Source: Escherichia phage vB_EcoS_ESCO41. Taken from it: DNA of 50,800 nucleotides. Below the pieces are notes generated by a model that saw only the letters and a program-made list of their open reading frames with translations, ran no database searches and was not told the DNA's origin. Every line of letters starts with the position of its first letter. Within the stretch, counting starts at the first letter, position 1. Positions 208-44,382 of the stretch are shown here, piece by piece. The stretch lies in sequence record NC_047820.1; one strand, written 5' to 3'. Made by a program: the position numbers and the translations under genes.

Positions 208-344
208 TGTATACTGTGTAACGATTTGGCATAAGCATACGCGGCATACGCATTTTTACGCATTAGTTACAATAAAATATCTATATATAACAACCCTTTA
301 TCTATATTATTATTATTATATATATCTATGTATACTGTGTAACG
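208..344. repeat. AT-rich element flanked by exact 16-bp direct repeat TGTATACTGTGTAACG (208-223, 329-344), with tandem GCATACGC (235-242, 244-251) and a (TTA)n/TATA tract; paralogous to 31036-31165
   Basis: Direct reading; about 90 bp aligns at roughly 85% with 31065-31160 (judged by eye). Confidence 0.55.
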
Positions 345-545: not shown

Positions 546-574
546 TTGACTTACGCGTTAACTCCATCCATAAT
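546..574 (+). promoter_or_regulatory. sigma70-type promoter TTGACT-N17-CATAAT upstream of the first early gene
   Basis: -35 TTGACT 546-551, 17-bp spacer, -10 CATAAT 569-574, about 40 nt before ATG 613. Confidence 0.5.
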
Positions 575-612: not shown

Positions 613-1149
613 ATGGATAAGGTGACATTGGGTGATGTGATTCGTGAGATGGTCCGCCAGGCGATTAAGTCCGACAAGAAGCTATGCGTCGTTCCGGTCC
701 GCAAGATATTCAACCTGGTCAACGGGTATGATTATCCGGATGAAATCATCGACGAGGTGACGGGGGGGATAACTAGTCCAGGTCGTGAAATCGCAGGCCT
801 GAAAAGTTCATACATCTATAACACCGCAGCAAGAATGCAGGAGCTTCGCGATATTGATATGCACGTCAAGCATCGCTTTATCTGGCTGGCGTCAGGCGAG
901 GAAACGGCAGCTCGCAAGGTTGATGGCGATGGCGCGGACAAGAACCTCCTGATCCAGCTTGAGCCAGGCGCTCTTAAGCCGACCAAGCGCAAGGCTGCCG
1001 ATATTGAGAAAGAGGTAGCCACCATTGAAAGGTTCAAGGCAAGACTACTCAAGATCACGCCGAACATTATAGACCTGCAAGGCGAACAAAAAGAAGGCGC
1101 GCTTATCGCCCTGGCTCGCTACCATGAAATGATTAAGGAGACTAACTGA
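613..1149 (+). CDS. hypothetical protein (178 aa)
   Basis: Long ORF downstream of promoter; no recognised motif. Confidence 0.55.
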   Translation: MDKVTLGDVIREMVRQAIKSDKKLCVVPVRKIFNLVNGYDYPDEIIDEVTGGITSPGREIAGLKSSYIYNTAARMQELRDIDMHVKHRFIWLASGEETAARKVDGDGADKNLLIQLEPGALKPTKRKAADIEKEVATIERFKARLLKITPNIIDLQGEQKEGALIALARYHEMIKETN

Positions 1150-1673
1150 TGTTTAATTTTGACGAAGACAAACTGACTGATGAGCAGATTATGAATATTG
1201 CTATCCAGGATGGGCTACCGCCACTGCGGGTTGCAATCAATGCTAACGGGTATCGGCATGTTCAGCACCTATGGGGTCAGCCTGATGCATCTGAAGTCTA
1301 CAGAGATGAAGCGCTGGGCGTTCTGATTAAGTTGATCAGGAAGATGGCAAGGAACGGCAAGGGAGTGGTGGGTGTCAAGTCTCTATACGAAGGCGCGCGC
1401 AAGGTTAAACCGTTCGTAGGATGCTTTGATATCATGTTGCGCATCAAGGGTGGGCTCCCCGCTCTAGAGGAAATGAATCTCACGTGCCTCATTGGAGATA
1501 AGATTTATGTCCACCCGGCTATCATTGATGAGTACTGGAAACCAAACTTCAAAACTTACGAAGGTGAGTATGCTAGTAGACTACCATACCACTTACGGTA
1601 CGGTGAGGATGAGGTGGAGGCGGCGATCGAGTTCTACCGGAAAGCTAAATCACTCCTGAATGGTGAATATTAA
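1149..1673 (+). CDS. hypothetical protein; internally deleted paralog of the 527-aa P-loop ATPase at 46380..47963 (N- and C-terminal segments only)
   Basis: MFNFDEDKL..LPPLRVAINANGYR and NGKGVVGVKSLYEGARKVKPF..TCLIGDKIY match both termini of the 527-aa protein; ATGA overlap with upstream gene. Confidence 0.6.
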   Translation: MFNFDEDKLTDEQIMNIAIQDGLPPLRVAINANGYRHVQHLWGQPDASEVYRDEALGVLIKLIRKMARNGKGVVGVKSLYEGARKVKPFVGCFDIMLRIKGGLPALEEMNLTCLIGDKIYVHPAIIDEYWKPNFKTYEGEYASRLPYHLRYGEDEVEAAIEFYRKAKSLLNGEY

Positions 1674-7469: not shown

Positions 7470-7487
7470 CTAATAACGAGGTTTGAT

Positions 7488-7673
7488 ATGTTTGAGGTCA
7501 AGCTAACTATTTTGCTAATGGGGCGCACATGCGCATCTTGTAAGCAAAACTTTGAAGCAAAGGTTGAGGCCAGTAGCGCCGAAGAGGCCGTTTCAAAGGC
7601 AAAGAAAATGAGCGGAGTCGATACAACGACTCATAAATTTTTAGTTAATTATGTAAGGGGTATTTCATGCTGA
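7488..7673 (+). CDS. hypothetical protein (62 aa)
   Basis: ATG 7488 with RBS AACGAGG; the longer ORF-track start 7443 would overlap the tRNA-like gene. Confidence 0.4.
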   Translation: MFEVKLTILLMGRTCASCKQNFEAKVEASSAEEAVSKAKKMSGVDTTTHKFLVNYVRGISC

Positions 7674-7888
7674 CGTTTATTTATGGTTTTATTTTCGCTT
7701 TCGTCCTGATCATTTCGTTATCTTGCTCATGTGTAGCCAAGCTAATTAAGCGAGGTCAGTTCGCTCAAGCTCGATACGATGAGAAGAAAAAGCAGTGGCG
7801 CGTATCCGGCAAGTTTATCTCTGTGTTCAACGAGATTAACGACATTCGATCGGGGCGGAAGCCTGGGGCCATCAAATACGTTGACTGA
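7667..7888 (+). CDS. small membrane protein (73 aa)
   Basis: N-terminal hydrophobic segment FIYGFIFAFVLIISL. Confidence 0.4.
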   Translation: MLTFIYGFIFAFVLIISLSCSCVAKLIKRGQFAQARYDEKKKQWRVSGKFISVFNEINDIRSGRKPGAIKYVD

Positions 7889-7896
7889 TTCATTTA

Positions 7897-7921
7897 AGCA
7901 TCCTTTGGGGTGCTTTTTTTA
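7897..7921 (+). terminator. rho-independent terminator
   Basis: 7-bp stem AGCATCC/GGGGTGCT with G-U pair, then T7 run. Confidence 0.6.
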
Positions 7922-7932
7922 TGCCTGCAATC

Positions 7933-7941
7933 TGGTATAAT
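7933..7941 (+). promoter_or_regulatory. extended -10 element TGGTATAAT upstream of terminase genes
   Basis: Direct reading; no clear -35. Confidence 0.3.
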
Positions 7942-7970
7942 TCATTCCTATTCAACAAGGGGAAACAACT

Positions 7971-8489
7971 ATGAAAGACGAAAATTTCACCAGCCACGCG
8001 AACGAGAAGGTTCGAATCGGTAACTTCAAAGAGCTATACAATAAAAAGTATGGCGACATTGCCAACCTGAACCATCGTCACCCAATGACGCCTGAGACTG
8101 TATTCAACCTTGCGGTTAAATATTTCTCATGGGCCGAGGACCAGGCAATTAAGGCAATCGAAACGGCGAGCTTCCATGGTGTAGTTACTGAGAACCTAGT
8201 GCATAAGCCTCGCATTTTCACTTTAAACGGATTCTGCCTGTACTGCGGAGTTACAGCAAGCTCAATTCAGAGCTGGCGCGCATCACCTGGATTCGCGGAG
8301 GTAATGGAGTTCGTTGACTCTGTAATCCATGAGCAAAAATATCAGCTTGCTGCAGCCAATATCATCAATGCTGGGTTTGTAGGCAAGGAGATTGGAATCG
8401 ACAAGCCCGCCGAGGTCAACGTAAGTAATGTAGTGAATGATACTCAGACGATTGAGGATGCTGTGAAAAGCGTTCTTGATAAGATTTGA
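7971..8489 (+). CDS. putative terminase small subunit
   Basis: 172-aa ORF immediately upstream of the large terminase; assignment by position only. Confidence 0.45.
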   Translation: MKDENFTSHANEKVRIGNFKELYNKKYGDIANLNHRHPMTPETVFNLAVKYFSWAEDQAIKAIETASFHGVVTENLVHKPRIFTLNGFCLYCGVTASSIQSWRASPGFAEVMEFVDSVIHEQKYQLAAANIINAGFVGKEIGIDKPAEVNVSNVVNDTQTIEDAVKSVLDKI

Positions 8490-10186: not shown

Positions 10187-10735
10187 GTGAGATTCAGCGA
10201 TATTTTTACATACAAAAGCGGAGAGGTTTTCTGGAATGGAAGGCCAGAAAGTGATTTTAGTAAAATGAGTGCATATCACGCGTTTAATAGGATGGTTGGC
10301 AATACTGCTGGATACCTAGATAAATCAAACGGATACTGGTATGTGTGGATTACAATTGGCGGTATTGAAAAGAAAATACCACGATCACATATTGTGTGGT
10401 GTATTCACAATAATGCAGCCATCGTTCCAAAAGGGTTTGTTATTGATCATATAAACCACGTAAGAGATGATGATAGGATAGAAAACCTTGAACTTAAAAG
10501 CTATAGAGGAAACAACAGAAACCTTTCAATATCAAAAAGGAATAAAAGCGGTTGCGTAGGTGTTACATGGTATTCTCGCGATGAAATGTGGATGGCTTGC
10601 ATAATGGGTGATGACGGAAAGAACAAAAATCTTGGCAGGTATAATGACTGGTTTGATGCGGTTTGCGCAAGGAAGAGCGCGGAGCATGAGATTGGGTATC
10701 ACACAAACCACGGCAAGGATAGCGAGAATTGCTAA
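10187..10735 (+). CDS. HNH homing endonuclease (GTG start)
   Basis: IDHINHVRDDDRIENLEL matches the HNH/AP2-type motif; paralogous to 12823 and 40179 genes. Confidence 0.75.
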   Translation: MRFSDIFTYKSGEVFWNGRPESDFSKMSAYHAFNRMVGNTAGYLDKSNGYWYVWITIGGIEKKIPRSHIVWCIHNNAAIVPKGFVIDHINHVRDDDRIENLELKSYRGNNRNLSISKRNKSGCVGVTWYSRDEMWMACIMGDDGKNKNLGRYNDWFDAVCARKSAEHEIGYHTNHGKDSENC

Positions 10736-12822: not shown

Positions 12823-13305
12823 ATGAATTTCAATGATTATTTTTATCATGTAGGAAAAGATCTCATCTGGAAAAATCCGACATCAGCAAGGGTTAAGGCT
12901 GGCGATATTGCTGGATGGAAGGATGAGGATGGATATATTTACGTTAGGATTATGGGTAGGCTAACTCCAGCCCATAGGGTAATATGGGAGATGCACCATG
13001 GCAAAATACCTGAAGGTATGGAGATTGATCATATAAACCACATCACGGATGATAACAGGATCGAAAACTTAAGGCTCGTAACCAGGCAAGAGAACTGCAA
13101 AAACGTCTCGATGAGTAAGTCAAACAAAAGCGGATTTGTCGGGGTTAGTTGGTGTAAGAGAACGAGCAAATGGTTTGCTTCAATAAGGGTGGACAAAAAG
13201 GAGCGGTTCCTTGGTAGATACGATATAAAAGATGACGCTGTGTACGCAAGAAAGGATGCAGAGACGAAATATAATTTTCACAAAAATCACGGGAGTAAAA
13301 AATGA
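12823..13305 (+). CDS. HNH homing endonuclease
   Basis: IDHINHITDDNRIENLRL motif; inserted between head genes. Confidence 0.75.
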   Translation: MNFNDYFYHVGKDLIWKNPTSARVKAGDIAGWKDEDGYIYVRIMGRLTPAHRVIWEMHHGKIPEGMEIDHINHITDDNRIENLRLVTRQENCKNVSMSKSNKSGFVGVSWCKRTSKWFASIRVDKKERFLGRYDIKDDAVYARKDAETKYNFHKNHGSKK

Positions 13306-15149: not shown

Positions 15150-16103
15150 ATGACTATGAAATTAGATTCTTTCGAGAAGAATATGATCACTAACGGCCTT
15201 CGCCAGCTCGGCATCAGCGGAAGCAAAGTCGATCAGATGGGTATCTGGACCGTTAACCAGATGACGCAACTTCTGAAGCGTCAATATGAAGAGGCGTACC
15301 CTGAAACTTCAGCGCTTGCTCTGTTCCCTGTCACCACAGAAATCAGCCCGACCGCTAACCTGTTCGAATACATGAAGTTGGACGGCGTGACCATGGCGAA
15401 GATTATCGCTGACTATAGCGACGACCTGCCGACCGTTGACGCTACTCACACCATGGAATCAGGTCGAGTTCACCGACTGGGTAACGCGTGGTTTATCTCC
15501 ATTGATGAGATCAAAACTGGAGCAGCTCTTGGTTCAAGCCTTTCTGACCGTAAAGCAACTCTGGCTCGCGAAGGTCACGAAACACTGGTTAATCAGCTGG
15601 TTTTCAAAGGCTCGAAGCCTCACAAGATCGTTTCGGTATTTGACCATCCGAACATTCCGCGAGTAAACTCTGTGGCTGGAGCGTGGGCTGACGCTGAAAA
15701 GGCAAGTGATGAACTGACCGACCTGATCGAGCAGATGGAATCAGTCACCAATGGTAAGCACAAAGTAACCGACATCGTAATTCCGCCGTCTCAGCGTAAA
15801 CTGCTGGCTAAGCGTATGCCGGAAACGACCATGAGTTATCTTGACTGGTTCAAGTCTCAGAACGGTGGCATTACCATCTCTTCCATTTCTGAACTGGAAG
15901 ACATCGACGGAGCAGGCACCAAAGCCGTACTGGCTTACGAAAAAGATCCGATGAACATGAGTATCGAGATCCCTGAGTCGTTCAACATGCTGCCAATGCA
16001 GCCGAAAGACTTGCACTTCAAAGTGCCGTGCACGTCAAAGACCACTGGCCTGATCGTGTATCGCCCACTTACCCTCATCCTCCTGGTTGGTGTGGGCAAG
16101 TAA
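15150..16103 (+). CDS. putative major capsid protein
   Basis: 317-aa ORF with own promoter, strong RBS AAAGGAACA and flanking terminators; positional. Confidence 0.6.
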   Translation: MTMKLDSFEKNMITNGLRQLGISGSKVDQMGIWTVNQMTQLLKRQYEEAYPETSALALFPVTTEISPTANLFEYMKLDGVTMAKIIADYSDDLPTVDATHTMESGRVHRLGNAWFISIDEIKTGAALGSSLSDRKATLAREGHETLVNQLVFKGSKPHKIVSVFDHPNIPRVNSVAGAWADAEKASDELTDLIEQMESVTNGKHKVTDIVIPPSQRKLLAKRMPETTMSYLDWFKSQNGGITISSISELEDIDGAGTKAVLAYEKDPMNMSIEIPESFNMLPMQPKDLHFKVPCTSKTTGLIVYRPLTLILLVGVGK

Positions 16104-16109
16104 AACAAA

Positions 16110-16137
16110 GCCCCTGATTAATTTCAGGGGTTTTTTT
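16110..16137 (+). terminator. rho-independent terminator
   Basis: CCCCTGA-ttaatt-TCAGGGG followed by T7. Confidence 0.7.
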
Positions 16138-16139
16138 GT

Positions 16140-16168
16140 TTGACTCATAGTCAAAAATGAATTAAATT
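16140..16168 (+). promoter_or_regulatory. candidate sigma70 promoter TTGACT-N17-TAAATT
   Basis: Direct reading; weak -10. Confidence 0.3.
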
Positions 16169-16210
16169 AGAACCTCAAAAGCTAATGCAACCAAGTAAGG
16201 AATATTAAAA

Positions 16211-16486
16211 ATGACTACCAAAACCGTTAAGATTAAAAATATTGGCGCTTGCCTGCTTCGCATCAACAAGACAAACGTATCCCCTGATGAATCAATTGAA
16301 GTTGATGAGTCAGAAATCAAGTCTCCTGCATTTAAGCACCTATTTATCTCTGGCGTCGTCGAGTTCGAAGATGAACCAAAGAAAACTCGTGAGATTATTG
16401 AAGGGTTCAAGTCAACCATGAAGACTAAGAAAAAGAAAGAGCCTAAGAGCATCGAAGAGCTGGAAACTGGCGCAGACATCAAATAA
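16211..16486 (+). CDS. hypothetical Lys-rich protein (91 aa)
   Basis: ORF between two terminators with RBS. Confidence 0.45.
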   Translation: MTTKTVKIKNIGACLLRINKTNVSPDESIEVDESEIKSPAFKHLFISGVVEFEDEPKKTREIIEGFKSTMKTKKKKEPKSIEELETGADIK

Positions 16487-28929: not shown

Positions 28930-29886
28930 TTAATACATGTTTGGGGTAAAAGGAAGTGCCATTGATATGTTTGTATCGAATGGAAATTGAGCACCTGATT
29001 GCGTTGAGTAGTTACCAATTACAGTTCCTGGGGCTGCTCTAACATTTCCACCTGACATACATATTCCCTTATACCTAAGATTGTTGTAACCTCCTGTCAC
29101 TCTTGTTGTTGCTCCACATCTAAGTATAGGAAAGAACCCACCAACATATTGCCAGTTGTTATTGATCTGAATGAACCCACCAAGGACAAATGGCCTCCTC
29201 ACACTTGAGAACACTATCTGCCCGGCGGGATTGCTCATTGTAATGCCAGGGCCAGCTGGCGGTGGTGAGTTGTTGAATATAACCAGATTCACATATGCAC
29301 TTGCCGCAACATCATCTGTACCTCCGTAGTTTATATCCCTACACCATATCGTTGAACCATCTGATTCAAGTGATACGTTTGGGTTATCCCACATGCCAAA
29401 AGGTATTCCAGGAACCGGAAGGCTTGCTGCACCGTTAACTTGCAAACCACCTACGTACGCCGCACTCATCAATCTCGCGTTGTTTGGTATGGCTGTAAAG
29501 TTCGTTGAGTTCTCTACAAGCAACCCCTGATTTCCAGCTGTAGCAGGTAGTATCTCAAAACAACTGCCGTAGAATCTTAATAGTCTACCATTCGAACCAT
29601 TGAAATTTCCGATCCCAATGCGCCCTACAGAATCGTTAACCTTTGAGAAGCTATTGAGGAAGTAGACCTCTGGAACAACATCAAAATCATCAACATACAC
29701 AGCCTGGCTTGGTAGGCAAAAAGCTGTTGAACCAGGTGTCATTGCCAATCCGAAGTCCCATGTTGAGTTAGCAGAATCAAACCCGTCAGCCTGAATTGCA
29801 CCTGACACGGCTGGCGCTCTTAATCCAGCCGTTATCTGCATAGGAGGTCTTCCGTCATTCAAGTCTATAAATATACCCTGAGGCAT
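28930..29886 (-). CDS. hypothetical Gly/Asn-rich protein (possible fibre or receptor-interaction protein); start ATG 29886
   Basis: 318 aa; RBS AAGGAG 7 nt upstream; TAATG overlap with the lipoprotein gene. Confidence 0.5.
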   Translation of the reverse strand: MPQGIFIDLNDGRPPMQITAGLRAPAVSGAIQADGFDSANSTWDFGLAMTPGSTAFCLPSQAVYVDDFDVVPEVYFLNSFSKVNDSVGRIGIGNFNGSNGRLLRFYGSCFEILPATAGNQGLLVENSTNFTAIPNNARLMSAAYVGGLQVNGAASLPVPGIPFGMWDNPNVSLESDGSTIWCRDINYGGTDDVAASAYVNLVIFNNSPPPAGPGITMSNPAGQIVFSSVRRPFVLGGFIQINNNWQYVGGFFPILRCGATTRVTGGYNNLRYKGICMSGGNVRAAPGTVIGNYSTQSGAQFPFDTNISMALPFTPNMY

Positions 29887-30128
29887 TATTTCCACTCCTT
29901 ACTACCGTGATCTGCAACGGAGCCGCCGTAACCTCCGCCATTGGCCTTAATTCCATCGTAGCGCACGTCAACTTCTCCAGCCGGCACAACCACACCATTT
30001 TTCCATTTAGCCACGCACACTCCGTTTGATTGCGTTGCACACCAACCATCAGGGCGAGGACCAGAAGAACAACCTACCATCATGATTGCTGCTGCGGCGA
30101 TGATTGAAAGTTTGATTAAGTTAGTCAT
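29886..30128 (-). CDS. small lipoprotein, Cor-like superinfection-exclusion candidate
   Basis: Signal peptide plus lipobox MVGC in [22 protein letters not shown]; about 80 aa; adjacent to tail-fibre genes as cor is in FhuA-dependent phages. Confidence 0.45.
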
Positions 30129-30168
30129 TTCTAATTCCTCATTAAGTGCGTTTCGTTTCGATGGAGTA

Positions 30169-30211
30169 ATAGTATCGCATCCTTGCGATCAGTGTTTAGC
30201 AATTAGTGCTA
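30169..30211 (-). promoter_or_regulatory. palindrome-promoter cassette (minus): TAGCACTAATTGCTA + 22 bp + TACTAT
   Basis: Palindrome (plus 30197-30211) overlaps the Rha-like stop; leader CCATCGAAACGAAACG at plus 30149-30164. Confidence 0.6.
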
Positions 30212-30856
30212 TTTCTTTTCCAGCAGCAGCTTGATATCAATGCCGAGATTATTCTCAATCAGTCCGGTCAGCGCATCAGTCTTTTCCTTAAGGGCGAAGC
30301 ATTGAGCTTCATATTTAAATCTTTCCTCCATCTCATCAGAACGACCGACCCAACACTGGCGAGCCTCACAAGCCAACATGTCGAGCTTTTCATCGGTATT
30401 CTTATCCATCAGCAGGATCTCATTTATTCTTTGCTCCGCAACAATGCGCTGGCTCAGGTGTGCATTTTGCGCATTAGCTACACCAAGCATCATGCGCGCC
30501 TCTTTTAGTTCATCAATACTTACCATCTGGCTGATTACCTCAGCTTGCTTTTTAACTAACACCTCAAGCTCATGAAGCCTACGGATAACTTTGTGGCGAA
30601 GCAAGACGCTGTAGCCAGTGATTAGCGTTTCGGTGAGCTCCTTGTCTAGAAGAATCTCAGAATTATAACCTCGACCATCTTTAAGTATCTGATATTGCTT
30701 ATCATCCAAAACTGGATGATCGTTATATTGTAACAACTCATTGATCATATCCCTTGCATCCCTCATTACGTGGAAGTGCTCCTTTCCAGTTAATCCAGCG
30801 ATTTCCTTTGTGCTCATCATGGTTTTTGGTTGTTCTTTGTACGCTTTAATGTTCAT
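30209..30856 (-). CDS. Rha-family phage regulatory protein (antirepressor-like); start ATG 30856
   Basis: MMSTKEIAGLTGKEHFHVMRDARDMI resembles the Rha N-terminal domain; RBS GAGAGATTAAA before 30856; longer ORF-track N-terminus is probably 5' UTR. Confidence 0.5.
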   Translation of the reverse strand: MNIKAYKEQPKTMMSTKEIAGLTGKEHFHVMRDARDMINELLQYNDHPVLDDKQYQILKDGRGYNSEILLDKELTETLITGYSVLLRHKVIRRLHELEVLVKKQAEVISQMVSIDELKEARMMLGVANAQNAHLSQRIVAEQRINEILLMDKNTDEKLDMLACEARQCWVGRSDEMEERFKYEAQCFALKEKTDALTGLIENNLGIDIKLLLEKK

Positions 30857-30926
30857 TTTAATCTCTCTATATGTTTTGACTGCGAAAATTTCGTATTCAA
30901 ACGGCACCATCGCCGCCATGCGCCTA

Positions 30927-30969
30927 AATATACCCAGATATAGCCAGTTGTCTTTAGCAATTCGTGCCA
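30927..30969 (-). promoter_or_regulatory. palindrome-promoter cassette (minus): TGGCACGAATTGCTA + 22 bp + TATATT
   Basis: Plus 30955-30969 palindrome with one half-site mismatch; -10 at plus 30927-30932. Confidence 0.5.
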
Positions 30970-31035
30970 TTTATCGCCAATTCCACCATAAATCACGGTT
31001 ACACGTAACCGATGTAACTCGATGTATACAATCTC

Positions 31036-31165
31036 TTCCGCGAAAAATGATATACGCGCTGTTACGCTGATTTACGCAATGGTTACATTAAAATATCTAT
31101 ATATATCAACCTTTTACTCTTATTATTATTATTATATATATTACTGTGTATATCATGTAACTACT
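31036..31165. repeat. AT-rich element paralogous to 252-344: ATACGC-type repeats, (TTA)n tract, TACTGTGTA motif
   Basis: Aligned by eye to the left-end element; lies between divergent transcription units. Confidence 0.55.
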
Positions 31166-31366
31166 TCTATAGAGTGTTCCGATTATAAATTTCTAATATG
31201 TACATTTATACAGTATTTAATCATACGTATACCAATGCACCATCCGATGAAAATGATATACACGATATACGCGACGTTTACATTGAGCTATAGCTGGTCC
31301 GGACAGTCATTTTATGTAACTACTAACTATGTATACACCAAGTTACAGATATATACGCGTAACCTA

Positions 31367-31394
31367 TTGACTAATGCAACCAATAGCGTATAGT
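31367..31394 (+). promoter_or_regulatory. sigma70-type promoter TTGACT-N16-TATAGT for the recombination operon
   Basis: -35 31367-31372, -10 31389-31394, then leader CATCAACAACGAACGAGG and ATG 31428. Confidence 0.55.
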
Positions 31395-31427
31395 CAGCCA
31401 CATCAACAACGAACGAGGATTAAAGAG

Positions 31428-32468
31428 ATGACCAAACCACTGTTTCAATATTTCACTTCAGAAGAAATGAGCAACGACTTTTATCACAGTAAAGATGAAT
31501 GGACTGCCGAGTATGTCTCTGGTTCATCGTTAAGCAAGATTCACAGCACATGCCCTGCGGCGTGGAAGTTCGAAATGAACTCTACGACTAAGGCTCTTGT
31601 TTTCGGCACGCAGTCACACACAAACTTTGAGAGTAAGGCTCTTTTTGAACGTCAATATCGCCGCGCACCGAAAGAAAGCGAGATTGAAAACGTGATAACA
31701 AGCCAGGCGGCATTGGCAGCTAAGTTAAAATCATTTGGCCTGACTGGTACAAGCGGAAAGCAATATCCAGAGTTGATTAAAATGATGGTTGATTGCGGCG
31801 AAGACCTTAACGTCATGTGGCTGATTGACATGATCGCACAATGTCAGGCGTGGGCCGACGGAGTGGAACTGGTTAAGGCTGAGGACTACGACGCCTGCGT
31901 CAGTATGCGCCAGGTTCTTGAGATGATTCCTGAACATAACGCCTGCATGAACAGTGAGACTGCATTCCGTGAGTATTCATTGTTTGGCGTGATTTGTGGC
32001 GTTAAAGTTAAGGTGCGACTTGACCATGTTGACATCGTTAAGGATCTAGAGGCAATACGGCGCATGGGCTACGATCCTGAGATTCACCCTGAAATTGTCG
32101 TCATCACTGATTACAAAACGACAATGAGCGCTAACCCGACCGAGTTCCCTCGCCTGGCGTTCAATCATGGCTACTACCTCAAGATGGCATTGCAGCGTGA
32201 CTTGTTCGTTAAATGCTTTGAAGAAACGCGACCTGTGGTTGTGCGCTTGCTGGCCCAGGAGAAGAAAGAACCTTACTTGCCTATGGCGTACCGGATGAGC
32301 GGCGATCAGCTTAAGATTGGGCGTGCTCAGTATATGAGCGTTATTCATACTTTCTCAATGTGCGAAGCGAATGACGTATGGCCTTCATACAGCAACGGCG
32401 AGCCAGAGATTGAGCTTGAGACTCCTGATTGGATTAAAAAGCAGTTCAATCACATTTTGGAATCGTAG
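31428..32468 (+). CDS. PD-(D/E)xK-family recombination exonuclease-like protein; start ATG 31428
   Basis: Motif IVVITDYKTT with acidic residues upstream; directly upstream of Erf-like and SSB genes; ORF-track start 31374 lies inside the promoter. Confidence 0.5.
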   Translation: MTKPLFQYFTSEEMSNDFYHSKDEWTAEYVSGSSLSKIHSTCPAAWKFEMNSTTKALVFGTQSHTNFESKALFERQYRRAPKESEIENVITSQAALAAKLKSFGLTGTSGKQYPELIKMMVDCGEDLNVMWLIDMIAQCQAWADGVELVKAEDYDACVSMRQVLEMIPEHNACMNSETAFREYSLFGVICGVKVKVRLDHVDIVKDLEAIRRMGYDPEIHPEIVVITDYKTTMSANPTEFPRLAFNHGYYLKMALQRDLFVKCFEETRPVVVRLLAQEKKEPYLPMAYRMSGDQLKIGRAQYMSVIHTFSMCEANDVWPSYSNGEPEIELETPDWIKKQFNHILES

Positions 32469-32507
32469 CACTTTTTGCTAAACACGAATGCGGTGATTTG
32501 CTATAAT
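32466..32507 (+). promoter_or_regulatory. palindrome-promoter cassette: TAGCACTTTTTGCTA + 21 bp + TGCTATAAT
   Basis: Palindrome 32466-32480 overlaps stop; extended -10 32499-32507 within hairpin CGGTGA..TCACCG. Confidence 0.6.
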
Positions 32508-32544
32508 CACCGTAAATCAAACGAAGTAAACAAAGGTATATATA

Positions 32545-33201
32545 ATGCGTACATCAGAGAAGTTTTCGAATGTTTCATCCGCTCTAATTGCAGCTAAAAA
32601 GCAGTTTGCCATCGCAAAAAAATCAGGCTATAACACTCACCTAAAAACTCACTACTCAAACCTGACGGACGTTTTGGAGGCGGTAGAGCCAGCACTGAAA
32701 GAACATGACCTTATGGTTATCCAGTCAAATCTGGACACGTCAACCGAAAAGGTGATGCACATTGAAACGCTCATCCTTCACAGTTCCGGCGAGTGGCTTG
32801 CTTTCCAGTACAATATGCCGATTGAGAAAATTAGCGCCCAGGCATACGGCTCTACGACTTCATACGGTCGCCGTTACGCATTATGCGCGGCACTTGGTAT
32901 TACTCAGAGCGATGACGACGCAGAGATCGCAAAGCGTACGGCAGCAGATTACAAAAAGCTGATCACCAACTGTGATAAGCTGGAAGACCTACAGGTGATT
33001 TATAAGAGCGCAAAGTGTTCACTTGGCGCGGCGGAATGGAAGATCGCAGAAGACCACTTGCAGAAGCGCAAGGCTGAGCTTAGCATTGGTAACGCTCGCG
33101 GATTCCAGCCAGCAAAAAAGGCTGACAATCAAAAGGTTGAGGATAAGGTTGCAAATGCACCTTCTGAACCTGTACAATCTGAATCCATCGAGCAATTCTA
33201 A
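32545..33201 (+). CDS. Erf-like single-strand annealing protein (putative)
   Basis: 218 aa between exonuclease and SSB; functional assignment by module context. Confidence 0.45.
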   Translation: MRTSEKFSNVSSALIAAKKQFAIAKKSGYNTHLKTHYSNLTDVLEAVEPALKEHDLMVIQSNLDTSTEKVMHIETLILHSSGEWLAFQYNMPIEKISAQAYGSTTSYGRRYALCAALGITQSDDDAEIAKRTAADYKKLITNCDKLEDLQVIYKSAKCSLGAAEWKIAEDHLQKRKAELSIGNARGFQPAKKADNQKVEDKVANAPSEPVQSESIEQF

Positions 33202-33239
33202 TTAACGGGGCTTCGGCCCCATCAAAAAAGGAAAATATA

Positions 33240-33683
33240 ATGCCACACGTAATCACTGGCCAGATCCGTAAATCACCATTCACTAAAGAAGGAAGCAACA
33301 ACAACGGACGTTGGAAAATGTATGCCGTCGAACTTTCTGAGCGCATGAAGATTCGAAATCAGAATGGCGAGGATGAGACGGTTTATAGCAACTACCGCGC
33401 TACATTCTTCGCAAAAGAAAACGTTATGCAGTGGTATGATGAAGCGTTCCAGGAGGGAAAGGTTGTTTCAATTTCTGCCGACACTCTTCATTTATCGTCT
33501 CGACAGGGTAATGATGGAACCGTTTACGTCACCGCTGAAATGATCCGGCCTCAGCTGCAATTCAGCCAGCGCGAACAAGCGCAGAAGCAGAGTCAAGGAC
33601 AACAACAGCATCAGCAGAATCAGAGACATCAGCAGCAGCAGCCACAACAACAAAAACAATTCGAAGACGATATACCGTTCTAA
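33240..33683 (+). CDS. ssb: single-stranded DNA-binding protein
   Basis: 147 aa; Gln/Gly-rich linker and canonical acidic tail ..QQKQFEDDIPF. Confidence 0.8.
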   Translation: MPHVITGQIRKSPFTKEGSNNNGRWKMYAVELSERMKIRNQNGEDETVYSNYRATFFAKENVMQWYDEAFQEGKVVSISADTLHLSSRQGNDGTVYVTAEMIRPQLQFSQREQAQKQSQGQQQHQQNQRHQQQQPQQQKQFEDDIPF

Positions 33684-33717: not shown

Positions 33718-36123
33718 TTAAATCAATCCATAAATAACATTGTGTAACGTAAGGGAGCCAATGGATGGTCCTACGTTAAAGTTTATCTCGGCTCTATATG
33801 CACCCTGAGGAACTGTTGATATAAGAGCGTAAAAAGAGAAGCTACCACCTTGCGGTATGTAGTAACCTACAGATTCCTCAACGGCATTACCAGAAATATC
33901 TAAAAATCTAATACTTGCTAATGCTGTTGTTGTGCTCATGGCCCAAAAGCCGAACTGGAAGTATCTACCCGGTTCGCAATCATAAGCATTAGTGGTAAAG
34001 TTAGCTGATGAGTTTAAGTCCGGTACATTCAAAAGGAATGACCTATCAAACTGAGCAGCTACACCTGTAGGCGCCTGCGAGACACTAGAGACAGCAACCG
34101 ATCCAGAAGAAGTTTGCGACAGTGACCAGTTGGAAGTATTCTGAAACTGGCCGCTGCCATTGCTTAGGCTGTTAATGTAAGGGCTAACAATTGATCCCTT
34201 GCTCCAATCACCAACAGGGAATCCAGCTCTCGGAAAGCACCCTCTCGCGATAACCTTTTTACTAGACCCGCCGACAACTTGCCTTGCTGGGAAACCAGAA
34301 GCAATTGTGGTACTTCCGTATAGGGGAAGCGAACAATTATTCAAGATTACAACGCCATCATCATTACTTACGATTGGAACAGACGTAAAACCATCTGGAA
34401 CAAGAATGGTGGTGTCTTTTATGCTTAATCTCGAACTTCCTGTGACCAGGAATGATACGAAGTTCTGACCTGGCTGATACTCTATATTTCCATTTGAGAA
34501 AACTACCGTCGCGTTATCGGACAGATTTACTGTGGGGTCAAAATAGCCACTCTTTTTACCTGCCGGTAATGAGCATGAATCAAAAATAAACTGACCATTC
34601 TCAAAGGTGATTGGTCCTCCGTTATCTACAATCCAGCAGTGATTAAACTTCATAACTTCACCAGAGTTAGCTCTCGACCTAAAAGTTATTGTCTCATTAA
34701 AACTCCTGCTTATTGCGCATTTATCAAAAAGAATCCTATATGAGTTGTCTAAGAACTCAATTCCACCAGTTGATATGATTCCGCAGTTCTCGATTCTTAA
34801 TTCGCCAGTCTCACCAGATGTTGCTCCACCTATACAGAACTTGCGGGCTCCAAGGCCAATAAATGAAACTCCAGATATCAATGATGTTGATGATATCGAG
34901 TCTCTATCAACATAATCAGTATTTGAGTTGAATATGTTGATGAAATATTCACCAACAGCACCGGGGGACTCTTTAATATTGCACTTGTTCTCGCCTATCA
35001 ATGAACCTTTTGATACGTCTATGTTTATCTGTGATTGCACAAGGCCATCTACAGGCACAACGCAGTCAAGGCCAGCCATGTTTACTGAGTTTATTGGCGC
35101 AGCTATATCACCATCACCAGTGTAACCAGCATCATATACTGTTGCTCTTCTACCGTTAAGTTTACGCCTCCATGTGACGCCGTCTCCTGCAAAAACAGTT
35201 ACATTATTAACCTGAAGTGATGCATCTGACGCGATAAGAGTACCGCCGCCTAGGTTGAATCCAGCCACATAAGACTCAAGCTCAATCGTAGTAATACCAA
35301 TCTCACCTGACAAACTAGATAACTCTGAAACTGATTTAACCTTACCGATTGAGCTTAAACCATCGTAATCAAACAAGTTTGAGTCATAAACCTTAACCCA
35401 TGAATCTACACCAACTCCACCCGTTGAATCTGGCGTAGAGCCTGCTGGAATCGTCTTTGGGAATGACCCAGTCCAGACATAAGACTTAACATCACTTCCA
35501 TTGATGTATAAAACCTGCTGATTTGTAGACTCTACCGTTCCTCCATCTGAGAAGTTTAAAGTTAATGTTCCAGACACAGAGTTTGCCGCTGCCTCTGCTC
35601 TATCGGCGGAAGATGATGCATTGGTGGCGTTAATTTGTGATGATGATGCATCACTTGAAACCTGTTCTGCAATCGTAACAATATCACCGTACTTCGTGTT
35701 TACCTGCTCTGCAATCGTAACAACATCACCGTGCTGCGTGTTTACCTGCGTTACCTTTGATTCAAAATCAGCATAGTCAAAATTGTTAAATGCATCAATA
35801 GCATCTGCAACTTCTGTTTCACGAGACTGATAGTAACGAAGTGTTTCTGCAACATCCTGAGCTAAGCCCTGAACGGTAATCCCATCGTGAGCAAGAATCG
35901 CGTAACCAGTTCCGGCAGGAACAGTTTCAGAATTAGGGTTATAAACATTAATATGCGTATCGCTGATAATTTCTGAGATAGTGTAAATCTGTACTGGTTC
36001 AGTTTTGAAAACAATGGTAGCACCAACGCGAATCAGTGTAAGCGGTGCTTTCCATGTCGTCCCGACGCCAGTAACCTCGCCATTTGCGGCTAGCGATGCT
36101 GTTCCTAAGTCATAAATTGCCAT
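33718..36123 (-). CDS. tail fibre / tailspike protein; start ATG 36123
   Basis: 801 aa; N-terminus MAIYDLGTASLAANGEVTGVGTTW is a phage-fibre-type anchor (recalled from memory); Gly/Asn/Ser-rich body; RBS AGGAG. Confidence 0.65.
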   Translation of the reverse strand: MAIYDLGTASLAANGEVTGVGTTWKAPLTLIRVGATIVFKTEPVQIYTISEIISDTHINVYNPNSETVPAGTGYAILAHDGITVQGLAQDVAETLRYYQSRETEVADAIDAFNNFDYADFESKVTQVNTQHGDVVTIAEQVNTKYGDIVTIAEQVSSDASSSQINATNASSSADRAEAAANSVSGTLTLNFSDGGTVESTNQQVLYINGSDVKSYVWTGSFPKTIPAGSTPDSTGGVGVDSWVKVYDSNLFDYDGLSSIGKVKSVSELSSLSGEIGITTIELESYVAGFNLGGGTLIASDASLQVNNVTVFAGDGVTWRRKLNGRRATVYDAGYTGDGDIAAPINSVNMAGLDCVVPVDGLVQSQINIDVSKGSLIGENKCNIKESPGAVGEYFINIFNSNTDYVDRDSISSTSLISGVSFIGLGARKFCIGGATSGETGELRIENCGIISTGGIEFLDNSYRILFDKCAISRSFNETITFRSRANSGEVMKFNHCWIVDNGGPITFENGQFIFDSCSLPAGKKSGYFDPTVNLSDNATVVFSNGNIEYQPGQNFVSFLVTGSSRLSIKDTTILVPDGFTSVPIVSNDDGVVILNNCSLPLYGSTTIASGFPARQVVGGSSKKVIARGCFPRAGFPVGDWSKGSIVSPYINSLSNGSGQFQNTSNWSLSQTSSGSVAVSSVSQAPTGVAAQFDRSFLLNVPDLNSSANFTTNAYDCEPGRYFQFGFWAMSTTTALASIRFLDISGNAVEESVGYYIPQGGSFSFYALISTVPQGAYRAEINFNVGPSIGSLTLHNVIYGLI
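35661..35744 (-). repeat. intragenic 42-bp tandem repeat (2 copies, 4 mismatches) in the tail-fibre gene, encoding VNTQHGDVVTIAEQ / VNTKYGDIVTIAEQ
   Basis: Direct comparison of 35661-35702 with 35703-35744. Confidence 0.7.
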
Positions 36124-36148
36124 AATAATCAACTCCTATATTGTTGTT

Positions 36149-36163
36149 TAGCACGAATTGCTA
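36149..36163. promoter_or_regulatory. isolated TAGCACGAATTGCTA palindrome 26 bp upstream of the tail-fibre start, with no -10 at the usual distance
   Basis: Direct reading. Confidence 0.4.
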
Positions 36164-36189
36164 AAGCGCATTGTATCATAACAAAGGAA

Positions 36190-36212
36190 TAAAAAAACCC
36201 GCCGTAGCGGGT
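36190..36212 (-). terminator. rho-independent terminator (minus strand) after the primase-like gene
   Basis: ACCCGC-tacg-GCGGGT followed by T7 on the minus strand. Confidence 0.65.
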
Positions 36213-36217
36213 AATTG

Positions 36218-37159
36218 TCATGAATACTTATCTATCAGATCCTGCGGCGTATATAGCTTTCGCTCAAGGCCCATCTTGAAGTTTCCACCGTTCGGCACGA
36301 CGACCTTCAAATCTCTCTCATCAGCCATGTAAAGCGTTCTCAAATCGTCAGCCGGACAAGCTACGCGCAACTCTCGATCTCCACGATAACGATAAGCAAC
36401 TATCTCAAGATTCTCAGGAGAGAAAGTAACCCAGACTTCCTGAATGGTCGCCATCTTCACACGATAACCATCAATCAGATCGCTTGTCATATATATAGCT
36501 GCATCAGCCTCGCCACTCCCCAGCTTAACCACTGAGCCGCGAGAATAATCACGCGCAAGGAAAGTGTATTCGCCATTATCATAAGCAAACATGACGTTAC
36601 ACATATCCTCATCAATTCCGTCATGGTGGACCATGTAGCACGGTAGTGCGTGTATTAGCTCCTCAGTGCCATTCTGACGCACTTTTACGCCAACATCATA
36701 CGAATCCTCAGTTAGGCACTCATACACGCTTAAATCGGTGCTCTCGCGCTTTTCTGTGCGTTCCATTACAGCTACACACGACTCATGATCCGCCATCTTG
36801 CCTAGGCCTTTCTCCGGTACGCGTGACGCCCTGCGGTAAGCTTTGGCTTTGTAATCCTGTGGCACTTTGCCAAGGAATCGACCGAGAATATTAATCACTT
36901 CACTGTAAGGCTCACCAGTCAGCTTCATCATCCAGCCAACACCGGAGTCGTTACCGCACTGATTACAGATTGCCCCACCGTCACCAGGGGAGTTAATGTT
37001 ATCAGTCCAGCGGAAGCGATCCGATCCTCCACAATACGGACAAGCCTGGTGCTTCTTATTAAAAACTCCAGACTGTAAGCCACATATCGACTGCAAGGCT
37101 TCTCGCCATAACCCCTTCATATATGGCAGAACTTCTTCTTTCCGATACATCTCATTCAC
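36218..37159 (-). CDS. primase-like zinc-binding protein (putative; GTG start)
   Basis: CPYCGGSDRFRW..CNQCG zinc-finger-like pairs near N-terminus; 313 aa; replication-module context. Confidence 0.45.
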   Translation of the reverse strand: MNEMYRKEEVLPYMKGLWREALQSICGLQSGVFNKKHQACPYCGGSDRFRWTDNINSPGDGGAICNQCGNDSGVGWMMKLTGEPYSEVINILGRFLGKVPQDYKAKAYRRASRVPEKGLGKMADHESCVAVMERTEKRESTDLSVYECLTEDSYDVGVKVRQNGTEELIHALPCYMVHHDGIDEDMCNVMFAYDNGEYTFLARDYSRGSVVKLGSGEADAAIYMTSDLIDGYRVKMATIQEVWVTFSPENLEIVAYRYRGDRELRVACPADDLRTLYMADERDLKVVVPNGGNFKMGLERKLYTPQDLIDKYS

Positions 37160-37174
37160 TTTGATTACTCCAAT

Positions 37175-37204
37175 AAAAAAGGTTGCACCAATTATGGCAC
37201 AACC
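37175..37204 (-). terminator. hairpin plus T-run (minus strand) that also carries the -10 of a degenerate cassette
   Basis: GGTTGCACC..GGCACAACC hairpin with plus-strand A6 (minus T6) tract. Confidence 0.45.
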
Positions 37205-37233
37205 TTAATTTTACTCTTTAGCTTTTCGTGCCA
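37191..37233 (-). promoter_or_regulatory. degenerate palindrome-promoter cassette (minus): TGGCACGAAAAGCTA + 22 bp + CATAAT
   Basis: Same spacing as canonical cassettes; -10 lies in the hairpin loop. Confidence 0.4.
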
Positions 37234-37234
37234 T

Positions 37235-37423
37235 CTAAACAACAAAGTGATGAGTCATTCTCCGCGACAAAAAAGACTCAAGATATCTTTCAATTACTTC
37301 CTTTTTACCAGTTTTTTTGTTGTAGGCGTATGGAGTTCCGCTGGTGTTGTCAACTTTACCAACAAATTTGTCGCCATCAACGTTAAAGATTGCTACGAAT
37401 TTACATTTAGGTAATTTGTTCAT
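37235..37423 (-). CDS. hypothetical protein (62 aa)
   Basis: ORF preceded by leader CACATCGAAAGCAGG and RBS. Confidence 0.45.
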   Translation of the reverse strand: MNKLPKCKFVAIFNVDGDKFVGKVDNTSGTPYAYNKKTGKKEVIERYLESFLSRRMTHHFVV

Positions 37424-37465
37424 TTTGTATATCCTCGTTTGGTTTGCCTGCTTTCGATGTGGTCA

Positions 37466-37508
37466 ATCATACCTCATCAATGAGAAATGTCTTTAGCTTT
37501 TCGTGCCG
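37466..37508 (-). promoter_or_regulatory. degenerate palindrome-promoter cassette embedded in the 3' end of the HTH gene: CGGCACGAAAAGCTA + 22 bp + TATGAT
   Basis: Plus 37494-37508 palindrome-like, -10 at plus 37466-37471, then leader and gene 37235..37423. Confidence 0.45.
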
Positions 37509-37959
37509 CATCGTTAGCGGCCTTAATCTTGCGCCATGAACGACACTCTGGCTTAGTGGCTAGTTCAGCCTCGGTGACGACGCGCAGCATGTGACGCTTT
37601 TTGCAACGCAGCGTTAGCGGCTTACCGTTCCCGTCGAATTGCAGATCCGGTCGGCAGAACGTAGCGCGGAATCCCTCTCCAGTTCGTTTGTATCGGTTAT
37701 GAGCCAGCTGAGCGCCACGGGCCGACATCATGCCGCGCTTAAACCATTCCTCAACGGCCTGGCGACTAACTTTCAGTTGCTTTGCGATATTTGCCTTCGT
37801 TCCGTAGAAGTCGAGAACCATTTCCAGTCGCGCCCGAAGCCCCGCCTTTACTTCATCTTTTAAAACGTAGTAACCTGAAGGTCGTTTTCGTTGCTTTTTG
37901 TCTTCAGTGCGGACTGTTCCGTTGTTACCGTTAATAGTTCGCTTGTCAACTGCTTTCAT
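37477..37959 (-). CDS. basic DNA-binding protein with helix-turn-helix (candidate transcription regulator)
   Basis: HTH-like TKANIAKQLKVSRQAVEEWFKRG; Lys/Arg-rich; divergent from the helicase gene with a palindrome in between. Confidence 0.5.
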   Translation of the reverse strand: MKAVDKRTINGNNGTVRTEDKKQRKRPSGYYVLKDEVKAGLRARLEMVLDFYGTKANIAKQLKVSRQAVEEWFKRGMMSARGAQLAHNRYKRTGEGFRATFCRPDLQFDGNGKPLTLRCKKRHMLRVVTEAELATKPECRSWRKIKAANDAARKAKDISH

Positions 37960-39242: not shown

Positions 39243-39348
39243 TTCTACTGGCGAGAAAAAACGACGTGAGATTCTATCTGATTGCCAGACAGGTAAGTAC
39301 AAAATAATATTCCAAATTGGGTGTCTAACTACGGGCGTTTCGGTCCCG
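39095..39348 (+). repeat. perfect tandem duplication, 2 x 127 bp (39095-39221 and 39222-39348), inside the helicase gene
   Basis: Base-by-base comparison; 127 is not a multiple of 3; deleting one copy restores a single ORF 38061..40182. Confidence 0.85.
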
Positions 39349-39369
39349 CCGTGGGACACAAGCGTTGTA

Positions 39370-40182
39370 TTGAGAAAGATTGGTAGCTTAACTCTCATGA
39401 TTCAGCTTCTTGGGCGAGGCATGCGAATTCTAAAGAAAAAGCATATAGAAATGGGGATGAAAAAAGATGATCACCTTGTTCTAGACTTCGCCGGCGCACT
39501 TGACGATATGGCCGAACTTTACTTTGACCCAATCATTGAAGAAATTCAGGCTGAGAAGTTCAAGTCCTCAAGGAAAGGTGGTGATGAGGTCCGGCAGTGC
39601 CCGCAGTGTGGATATGAGAACTCACCATTTGCTCGACGCTGTAGCAACAAGATTGATGGAAAGCGCTGTGAGCACTTTTTCAGCTTTACGGTTTGTGAAG
39701 ATATTACTGACCCACAAACAAAGTCCGTCATCAAGAAAGGTTGCGGTACTCGCAACGACATAGCAGCAAAGGTTTGTCGTGAATGCGGAGAAATGCTTAA
39801 AGACCCTAATGCTAATCTAACCGGTAAGATGTATCGTCGTGGTGATTACCTCCGAGTTTATGATTTTCAAGTTGGTTTAAGTAAGAACCAGACTGGAATA
39901 GTTGTTAAATACAACATCATGGCGCATAACGGAGAGCGGTTTAATGCTTGGGAGTTCTTTAATCCAGAATCAGACCATCGAGTTTGCAGCGTGCTTTGGA
40001 AAAATTTCTGCCTATCCCATATTGAGAATCGCACAGAAGCAGCACGAATTGCTAAACTTCGCAGCGCAAAAATGATTATGATGAACGTAGATAAATTCCG
40101 TGCTCCTGTGCAGGTAACTCACAGAAAGAATGGCAAAGGAAAGGACATAATAGCTTTTAAGAATTTTGGAGAATTATTATGA
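39370..40182 (+). CDS. SF2 helicase, C-terminal part (motif VI plus Cys-rich zinc-finger-like region); possibly a pseudogene fragment
   Basis: QLLGRGMR helicase motif VI; CPQCG..RRCSNK..CEHF and CGTRND..CRECG; frame continuous with upstream ORF if one repeat copy is removed. Confidence 0.55.
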   Translation: MRKIGSLTLMIQLLGRGMRILKKKHIEMGMKKDDHLVLDFAGALDDMAELYFDPIIEEIQAEKFKSSRKGGDEVRQCPQCGYENSPFARRCSNKIDGKRCEHFFSFTVCEDITDPQTKSVIKKGCGTRNDIAAKVCRECGEMLKDPNANLTGKMYRRGDYLRVYDFQVGLSKNQTGIVVKYNIMAHNGERFNAWEFFNPESDHRVCSVLWKNFCLSHIENRTEAARIAKLRSAKMIMMNVDKFRAPVQVTHRKNGKGKDIIAFKNFGELL

Positions 40183-41423: not shown

Positions 41424-41424
41424 G

Positions 41425-44381: not shown

Positions 44382-44382
44382 G

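Follow-up and report, generated by a model that had tools for sequence, protein, structure and literature searches.

Why should a phage genome carry the same AT-rich sequence twice, both times between genes? The question is raised by Escherichia phage vB_EcoS_ESCO41 (NC_047820.1), of which we analyzed the whole stretch of 50,800 bp (hereafter, the window); this is a complete genome of a Drexlerviridae (T1-like) coliphage, whose nearest relatives are Nouzillyvirus and Rtpvirus phages with 85–90% nucleotide identity. The left, pac-proximal copy of the element (L, 186–344) lies inside the large intergenic region adjoining the packaging start, and the middle copy (M, 30996–31181) occupies the 450-bp gap between a Rha/anti-repressor-like gene and the genes for exonuclease VIII, Erf and SSB, the protein that binds single-stranded DNA. 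An earlier reading of the DNA, the original prediction, had proposed that short repeats next to an AT-rich tract give these sites the architecture of a replication origin. Here we describe L and M as the best candidates so far for the replication origins of the Drexlerviridae, and we consider that the chances are even that they are two copies of one cis-acting element functioning as paired origins.

The two non-coding regions had been predicted to share some 90 bp at about 85% identity, and this was borne out by blastn with the dust filter off, which returned a gapped match of 100 bp with 84% identity; its E-value was 3e-22 when five genomes were searched and 1e-25 in the pairwise comparison. 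The ungapped match pairs positions 247–334 with 31063–31150 (82% over 88 nt), and a fainter homology reaches outward to approximately 186–343 and 31011–31161, so that L as a whole aligns to 31011–31161. The possibility of a low-complexity AT similarity only was checked with 300 shuffles within 20-bp blocks, which preserve the local AT profile. The Smith-Waterman score of L against M was 63, versus 15.4 ± 2.7 (maximum 26) in the shuffles (z = 17), indicating that the match is not due to low-complexity AT similarity alone.

To this window we added ten further genomes (IME253, Rtp, ETEP102, P818, TH30, 12397V, T1, Klebsiella phage PG14, Tempevirinae phage A118 and C119). The resulting eleven represent seven genera or subfamilies (Nouzillyvirus, Rtpvirus, Veterinaerplatzvirus, Tunavirus, Webervirus, Tempevirinae and Rogunavirus), sampled from a family of which over a thousand members have been sequenced. 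In every one of the eleven, the L and M sites were the two 60-bp windows richest in AT (85–92% AT; next best 75–83%), and the element kept a constant orientation with respect to the genes around it; in Veterinaerplatzvirus, the L copy is found at approximately 16100–16250, inverted in the record. Likewise, each genome showed its own likeness between L and M, over 78–165 bp at 74–86% identity (E from 1e-9 to 1e-37), with block-shuffle z values of 5–28 in the seven genomes tested. The match extends over 123 bp at 83% in Rtp (3e-34), 165 bp at 74% in P818 (1e-20), 91 bp at 75% in T1 (6e-11), 139 bp at 84% in PG14 (1e-37), 80 bp at 82.5% in A118 (3e-20) and 78 bp at 74% in C119 (1e-9). Conversely, elements occupying the same position in different subfamilies gave at most 63-bp AT matches, with E ≥ 1e-5. 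The two copies are thus closer within a genome than same-site elements are between subfamilies, suggesting either gene conversion or co-evolution with a shared binding factor. Recent conversion is unlikely to be the whole story, because L-specific and M-specific variants are stable across genomes of the Rtp/Nouzilly group, in which some L types are mosaic.

M was strongly conserved. Throughout the block at 30996–31181, upstream of the recombination module, 70–100% of the alignment columns were invariant in seven genomes, and the core at 31080–31180 was 90–100% invariant in these mosaic genomes; the exonuclease encoded next to this invariant core is a protein only ~50% identical in Rtp-type genomes. 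M is also immediately upstream of exo in Webervirus, indicating that the element was kept with the exo upstream region despite rearrangement of the neighbouring genes. The interpretation as an origin was in this way partly supported by sequence comparison, and it is better motivated by the conservation at two sites in 11 of 11 genomes.

Could this conservation be that of a gene, an RNA or a mobile element? The translations of the open reading frames (ORFs) at both sites had been taken for artefacts, correctly so in our analyses. Variable columns in ORF 31022–31393 were distributed 42/43/40 over codon positions 1/2/3, with no codon periodicity, and relatives carried 1-nt indels at 31132, 31192 and 31349; no reading frame was open throughout the L subtypes. 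A protein-coding gene, whether ORF 140–391 or ORF 31022–31393, was consequently rejected. Rfam covariance models gave no match at E ≤ 1 in either region. We did not find any copy of the element in the E. coli genomes and plasmids searched, indicating that it is not borrowed by a satellite or a plasmid. A mobile element resembling a miniature inverted-repeat transposable element is also made unlikely, by a position and orientation fixed in 11 genomes, by the restriction of the 16-bp direct repeat to one L subtype and by the lack of terminal inverted repeats and of host copies.

Both copies share a common anatomy, built around an AT-rich core. In L, the core ATAAAATATCTATATATAACAACCCTTTATCTATATTATTATTATTATATATATCTA spans 272–328, and the 60-bp window at 262–321, with 87% AT, is among the two most AT-rich of the genome; in M, the core spans 31088–31141, and the 60-bp window at 31083–31142, with 88% AT, is the most AT-rich of all. 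Hexamers inverted with respect to each other flank each core, GTTACA (266–271, minus strand) and TGTAAC (338–343) in L, and GTTACA (31082–31087, minus strand) and TGTAAC (31156–31161, plus strand) in M, the latter preceded by TACTGTGTATA (31142–31152). Further to the left, each copy contains three plus-strand TACGC units with a phasing of ~10 bp, about one helical turn: at 238, 247 and 257 in L (238–261; 9–10 bp) and at 31053, 31063 and 31073 in M (31053–31077; 10 bp). The third unit of L (TTACGC) is near-invariant in the 14 aligned copies, seven of L and seven of M, and begins a near-invariant core that reads TTACGC-N4-GTTACA-nTAnAATATCTATATATAnCAACCnTTTA-N5-TATTATTATTATTATATATAT-(TA)CTrTGTATA-N3-TGTA. 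With respect to host factors, the M core contains a perfect match to the consensus of the integration host factor (IHF), TATCAACCTTTTA, at its center (31104–31116), one of three perfect matches in the whole genome, and the L core contains TAACAACCCTTTA at 288–300, one mismatch away from it. The IHF consensus occurs in all seven M copies of the group of the window and in both A118 copies.

Several repeats described in the original prediction were found in their places. The tandem GCATACGC is present at 235 and 244, and the TACGC cluster of M is as listed above, although the second cluster announced, at 31258–31272, consists of a single TACGC (31268) beside a TACAC variant. The 16-mer TGTATACTGTGTAACG, said to frame L, occurs exactly twice in 1–620, at 208–223 and 329–344 (plus strand), 121 bp apart; however, the alignment of L and M copies confined this frame to one L subtype, so that it is not a general feature. 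The first 16-mer holds an outer TGTAAC (217–222), with a further TGTAAC to its left (188–193), and the second holds the inner-right hexamer of L. The left arm of M starts with the palindrome CGGTTACACGTAACCG (30996–31011), a GTTAC/GTAAC pair, followed by TGTAAC (31013–31018) and GTATAC (31024). A pair of direct repeats flanks the M core, GAAAAATGATATACGCG (31042–31058, plus strand) and GAAAATGATATACACGATATACGCG (31249–31272), ~207 bp apart and sharing the unit GAAAATGATATAC(r)CG at 31042 and 31249. Finally, a right-hand cluster of TGTAAC (31315), GTTACA (31342) and GTAAC (31359) occupies 31315–31363 and abuts the exo promoter.

Which of these words is the most probable binding site? An unbiased k-mer test for local enrichment, counting copies within ±250 bp of the two cores versus the genome, identified TGTAAC/GTTACA in the window (11 of 32 copies near the cores; p = 1e-12), rather than ATACGC. 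Other lineages yielded words of their own: TGTAACA in T1 (6 of 6; p = 1e-13), ATCTTAC (12 of 18; p = 2e-20) and ATCTTACC (7 of 7; p = 3e-16) in Webervirus PG14, and GATAACA in Tempevirinae A118 (7 of 16; p = 1e-9). Repeats beside an AT-rich tract were therefore found as proposed, and in two related, conserved copies, but ATACGC alone is not the best iteron candidate; this enrichment makes the TGTAAC/GTTACA hexamer the best candidate, the phased TACGC triplet being conserved as well. The inverted inner pair is also present in the M copies of T1 and Webervirus, each with its own motif, and the Webervirus L shows, by eye, a variant CTTACC/GGTAAG pair in the same layout. The possession of its own flanking motif by each lineage, together with the likeness of L to M, suggests that the two copies answer to a shared, lineage-specific factor.

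A scan of ~20 phage proteins against Pfam or PHROGs did not reveal any initiator or helicase loader. One candidate trans-acting factor is a DUF3987 MCM-like AAA+ helicase of 527 aa (46380–47963, minus strand; Pfam 2.9e-39). Experiments have established DUF3987 as a helicase domain, after which comes a small domain at the C-terminus (PMC11724360). Sequence searches of the PDB with this helicase and with a helix-turn-helix (HTH) protein gave no match, and we thus resorted to fold comparison. The AlphaFold (AF2) model of the helicase (predicted local distance difference test, pLDDT, 89.8) had as top Foldseek matches MCM2-7 subunits and Cdc6/Orc1, with template modelling (TM) scores that were low (0.32–0.37) but consistent as to family. 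Its C-terminal domain (approximately residues 451–521), modelled alone (pLDDT 85), adopted a winged-helix topology; the best match was the MCM4 winged helix (TMq 0.69; root-mean-square deviation 2.4 Å), with other winged helices next, and E-values were weak (≥0.014), as expected for an 88-residue domain. As modelled, the phage DUF3987 protein is an MCM-like helicase with a C-terminal winged helix.

The HTH protein, the other candidate, is Cro-like (weak P22_Cro match; phrog_2856, transcriptional regulator) and is encoded at 37477–37959 (minus strand), between the genes for a Zn-ribbon primase (36218–37159; a separate protein of 313 aa in which only the Zn-ribbon was detected) and an SNF2-type helicase (38061–40182). 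In a proteome-wide comparison across the six mosaic genomes with this element type, only three of 71 proteins nowhere fell below 84% identity: the DUF3987 helicase (92–100%), the HTH protein (91–97%) and the product of a 79-aa ORF (49498–49737, minus strand; phrog_4448). The primase, SNF2 helicase, VRR-NUC nuclease, exonuclease, Erf, SSB, terminase and structural genes were present as 40–60% alleles in at least one of the six genomes. Such co-inheritance fits a cis element and its recognition protein, although these could alternatively be slowly evolving core genes.

A BLASTP comparison also revealed a 174-aa paralogue of the helicase, encoded ~800 bp to the right of L (1149–1673, plus strand). 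It lacks the ATPase and joins the helicase N-terminus (first 45 aa) to the winged-helix C-terminus (last 69 aa), with 62% and 61% identity and E = 5e-18 and 5e-24, respectively. The paralogue is present in the window, IME253, 12397V, ETEP102, P818 and TH30, whereas Rtp, T1, PG14 and A118 lack it. At the DNA sites of the helicase, it could act as a competitor or as a regulator.

From this combination of features we infer protein binding, melting and initiation at L and M, as follows. Each copy would offer an AT-rich core of ~55–60 bp, specific in sequence and easily melted, bracketed by the inverted GTTACA ... TGTAAC and, in M, provided with an IHF-type bend site, while the left arm would contribute the additional hexamers and the helically phased TACGC triplet. 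A phage-encoded protein would bind the hexamers on both arms. The leading binder would be the DUF3987 helicase through its C-terminal winged helix, an initiator-helicase that would load itself in the manner of the Rep protein of the staphylococcal islands (SaPI), and the Cro-like HTH protein would be an alternative binder or a partner. Bending, possibly by IHF, and negative supercoiling would then open the (TAT)n/TATA tract, allowing the helicase to load on each side, the Zn-ribbon primase to prime and the host Pol III to elongate. Exo, Erf and SSB, encoded beside M, would finally turn the products into concatemers for pac-initiated headful packaging.

How does this arrangement compare with known replication systems? 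The ori and crr of P4 are two separated cis elements with the same short repeats, both bound by one primase-helicase-initiator, and crr is not an initiation site. The T1 record notes that the T1 primase resembles the P4-type alpha protein; here, however, the primase is a separate 313-aa protein, and the repeat sequences are unrelated. The AT-rich unwinding element and the possible IHF site are reminiscent of oriC, although L and M contain neither DnaA boxes nor GATC. Comparison with origins composed of iterons and a DNA-unwinding element (DUE), as in lambda, SaPI, SPP1 and iteron plasmids, is more favorable, since L and M have the AT-rich tract (87–88% AT, the top two windows) and, beside it, clustered short repeats (the 11 of 32 hexamers and the three TACGC units).

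As for two origins in one genome, the precedent is SPP1, a pac-type headful siphovirus that encodes a 5'-3' exonuclease, a protein annealing single strands and an SSB (PMC6316719). Its origins oriL and oriR are alike, combine direct repeats with an AT-rich DUE, and are among the strongest AT islands of the SPP1 genome (PMC6316719). L and M likewise are two separated sites of like organization, in a genome with an exonuclease/annealase/SSB module. Unlike this phage, SPP1 has the origin-binding protein gp38, the loader gp39 and the DnaB-type helicase gp40, with no counterpart detectable among the phage proteins scanned, and its oriL lies inside gene 38, whereas L and M are both intergenic. There is no sequence similarity between the SPP1 origins and L/M, and the function of the SPP1 origins is proven, whereas that of L and M is predicted from sequence. 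The SaPI ori, in turn, has penta- or hexanucleotide iterons on both sides of an AT-rich center, in opposite directions, and its Rep is a hexameric helicase that recognizes the iterons through a C-terminal winged helix and needs no loader (PMC9371898). This resembles the hexamer pair inverted across the AT core, and the predicted phage helicase with its C-terminal winged helix. Nevertheless, SaPI Rep belongs to the superfamily 3 (SF3) clade and moves 3'-5', whereas the phage DUF3987 protein is MCM-like (SF6) by fold, and AgaPH, a characterized DUF3987 member, unwinds 5'-3' (PMC11724360); moreover, the SaPI ori is single and immediately downstream of rep, whereas L and M are two and both away from the helicase gene. 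If the origin reading, which we consider about as likely as not, is right, L and M belong to a known class of iteron-flanked AT-rich origins, dual as in SPP1.

Inverted repeats around an AT-rich core, their presence in two copies, lineage-specific motifs, non-coding conservation, a helicase with a modelled winged helix and the match to SaPI and SPP1 together make paired origins the best explanation of L and M. We found no mapped origin of a T1-like phage in the literature, although the genome papers of T1 (2004) or Rtp (2006) may contain a passing mention; those of SU57 (2020) and TLS (2024, PMC11447400) state that no origin was identified.

Several observations weigh against paired origins. 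The position of an origin in or beside its initiator gene is common, although not universal, and yet the helicase gene adjoins neither element, unlike in lambda, SaPI and SPP1 oriL: it is ~3 kb from L across the circular junction, and M is ~5 kb from the primase and HTH genes, with Webervirus alone having M directly after the primase gene. T1 and the window share TGTAAC, yet the recognition helices of their winged-helix and HTH proteins differ; the divergence of these helices relative to motif type is compatible with co-variation but not decisive, and the assignment of a protein to the motif thus stays at candidate level. The hexamers of A118 do not form a clear inverted inner pair, and the IHF consensus is absent from the T1 and Webervirus elements. 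The cumulative GC and AT skews track the coding-strand blocks, with a minimum at approximately position 54 and a maximum at the 45.8-kb convergent switch, and as they follow the direction of transcription they mark neither L nor M. The three DnaA boxes (TTWTNCACA) of the genome are outside 1–612 and 30971–31427, where there is no GATC either, which counts only against an oriC-type, DnaA-dependent origin, a candidate that we rejected. Fis and CRP sites were also absent from both intergenic regions, leaving the IHF consensus (M) as the only host-factor motif. Finally, the TGTAAC copies at 31315–31363, which abut the exo promoter, would suit an operator role, and GTTACA resembles a -35 hexamer, forming part of a leftward promoter-like site in L (343–315; GTTACA-17-TATAAT, minus strand, scoring 10/12).

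These last two points belong to the alternative that survives best, which we regard as possible but doubtful: that L and M are hubs from which early transcription is regulated. In that case the Cro-like HTH protein would use the TGTAAC-type hexamers as operators, and the AT core would be an additional promoter or a region that is bent, UP-like or bound by IHF/H-NS. Their targets would be the sigma-70 promoters at 546–574 and 31367–31394 and, facing outward, the phage-type promoters at 30970 and 50781, with replication starting elsewhere or by recombination alone. Each element is indeed located between an outward-facing promoter-type repeat (30970, 50781) and one of few good sigma-70 consensus promoters, three hexamers are immediately upstream of the exo -35, and all genomes with the element type have a conserved HTH protein. 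Only three sigma-70-like intergenic promoters are reported in the related genome of TLS (PMC11447400). However, the invariant core lies 230–260 bp upstream of the rightward promoters, which is far for an operator or an UP element, and 100 bp at 90–100% invariance exceeds the normal constraint on operators. In Webervirus, moreover, M is located between the co-directional primase and exo genes and not between divergent promoters, and the promoter-like matches in the two regions were not significantly above those in shuffles (5 versus 2.8 ± 1.6 and 6 versus 4.0 ± 2.0). Regulation and origin function are, in addition, not mutually exclusive.

A variant of the paired-origin reading, which we think unlikely, is a division of labour between the copies, of the sort that has been suggested for SPP1, in place of redundancy. 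One of them would fire theta replication, whereas at M, directly before exo/Erf/SSB, the same factor would bind to a site programmed to block or break the fork, and the phage would thereby switch to recombination-dependent concatemers. The 174-aa protein, whose gene many members carry next to L, would occupy the hexamers without loading the helicase, as a trans-acting governor. If true, the origins would be controlled by a circuit of a kind not described before, with an MCM-like bacteriophage helicase as its basis.

Less probable still, and in our view very unlikely, is that the elements are linkers at recombination or mosaic junctions, or remnant duplicates with no function of their own. M does part modules that vary as alleles, with exo types that are ~50% identical and a Rha-like gene that some genomes have and others lack, and L-like and M-like variants are mixed within the L subtypes. 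Nevertheless, a functionless duplicate would not keep 90–100% invariance, position, orientation and pairing in seven genera, and the lack of terminal inverted repeats and of copies in E. coli genomes or plasmids also speaks against it; the location at a junction may result from the conservation instead of causing it.

A packaging or genome-end function, with L as a terminase accessory bend or IHF site beside pac, comparable with lambda cosB, and M as a second, cryptic or auxiliary site, is the least probable of all: although L is 50–200 bp from pac-type repeats, the terminal repeat in the T1 record starts at the corresponding position and a bendable core between 16-mer direct repeats is reminiscent of the R-I1-R arrangement in cosB, the 16-mer pair is limited to one L subtype, classical work on T1 describes a single pac, and a pac-accessory role is made unlikely by the lack in M of any pac-type motif of 1–135 and by a small terminase that occurs as ~55% alleles among genomes with an identical M core, with no co-variation.

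What would paired origins mean for this group of phages? T1 belongs to the seven classical T phages, and the Drexlerviridae rank with the most common phages of E. coli and Klebsiella, known as laboratory contaminants, therapy candidates and models of phage defence. The paired element gives two defined targets of ~150 bp, and the predicted MCM-like winged-helix helicase shortens the list of candidate binders. If the paired-origin reading is true, the design of a self-loading helicase and an iteron-flanked AT core, found in the staphylococcal islands, would extend to a virulent enterobacterial phage and to a different helicase superfamily. It would also account for an intergenic element being the most conserved sequence in highly mosaic genomes.

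The genes of the window form blocks that switch strand, at 613–28898 (plus), 28930–30970 (minus), 31428–33683 (plus), 33718–37959 (minus), 38061–45838 (plus) and 46002–50703 (minus). In the circular records of relatives, the two ends of the window fuse into one non-coding stretch of ~700 bp (e.g., IME253 7479–8184). The repeat region beside L (1–135), with two copies of TATTGCAATGAT (at 7 and 54), a 47-nt repeat in two copies, GGGGGG and three TGATGG, is of pac type and has no counterpart in M; similar motifs occur at T1 1–65, the point from which the 2.8-kb terminal repeat runs in the T1 record, and the region is probably pac. L itself is distinct from these repeats, and M lacks them and is 31 kb away, so that neither was retained as a pac site.

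The true start of exonuclease VIII is at 31428, and M is directly upstream of this gene, which is followed by those for Erf and SSB, in agreement with the placement originally given for the second copy. Matches to the sigma-70 consensus identified a putative promoter for the left early genes (TTGACT-17-CATAAT, 546–574, plus strand) and another for exoVIII/Erf/SSB (TTGACT-16-TATAGT, 31367–31394, plus strand). A different, promoter-type repeat, ATAGCAC-N3-TTGCTAA, often followed by TATAGT, occurs in 16 copies in the window, on the plus strand at 1885, 2182, 3024, 3912, 5274, 5903, 37972, 41068 and 42382, and on the minus strand at 15099, 30212, 30970, 48040, 48678, 50271 and 50781. All are oriented with local transcription, with the sole exception of 15099, and they correspond to the "18 intergenic 21-base repeats" of phage TLS (PMC11447400). 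The listed start codon of the Rha/anti-repressor-like ORF (30209–30970, minus strand) falls within one of these repeats (30953–30976), and family matches begin at residue 38. Its true start is thus probably ~35 codons downstream of the listed one, which makes the intergenic region of M longer than the ORF list suggests. In Webervirus (PG14, approximately 40300–44400), the HTH, primase, exo, Erf and SSB genes are co-directional, with M between primase and exo, unlike in the coliphages, where a tail-fibre gene parts oppositely oriented modules.

The genome average leads to an expectation of ~2 GATC per 600 bp, versus none in 1–612 or in 30971–31427, although the phage encodes a DNA adenine methyltransferase homologue (41425–42153). 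Three paralogous HNH homing-endonuclease genes (10427–10566, 13009–13148 and 40332–40507) are 69–79% identical in nucleotide sequence over 74–117 nt (repeat families D3, D5, D8 and D16). The SNF2-type helicase gene contains a perfect 127-nt tandem duplication (39095–39221 = 39222–39348), which is either real and disruptive or an artefact of assembly, and which splits it into 38061–39242 and 39370–40182; deletion of one 127-nt copy in silico restored a single 664-aa ORF, as in relatives.

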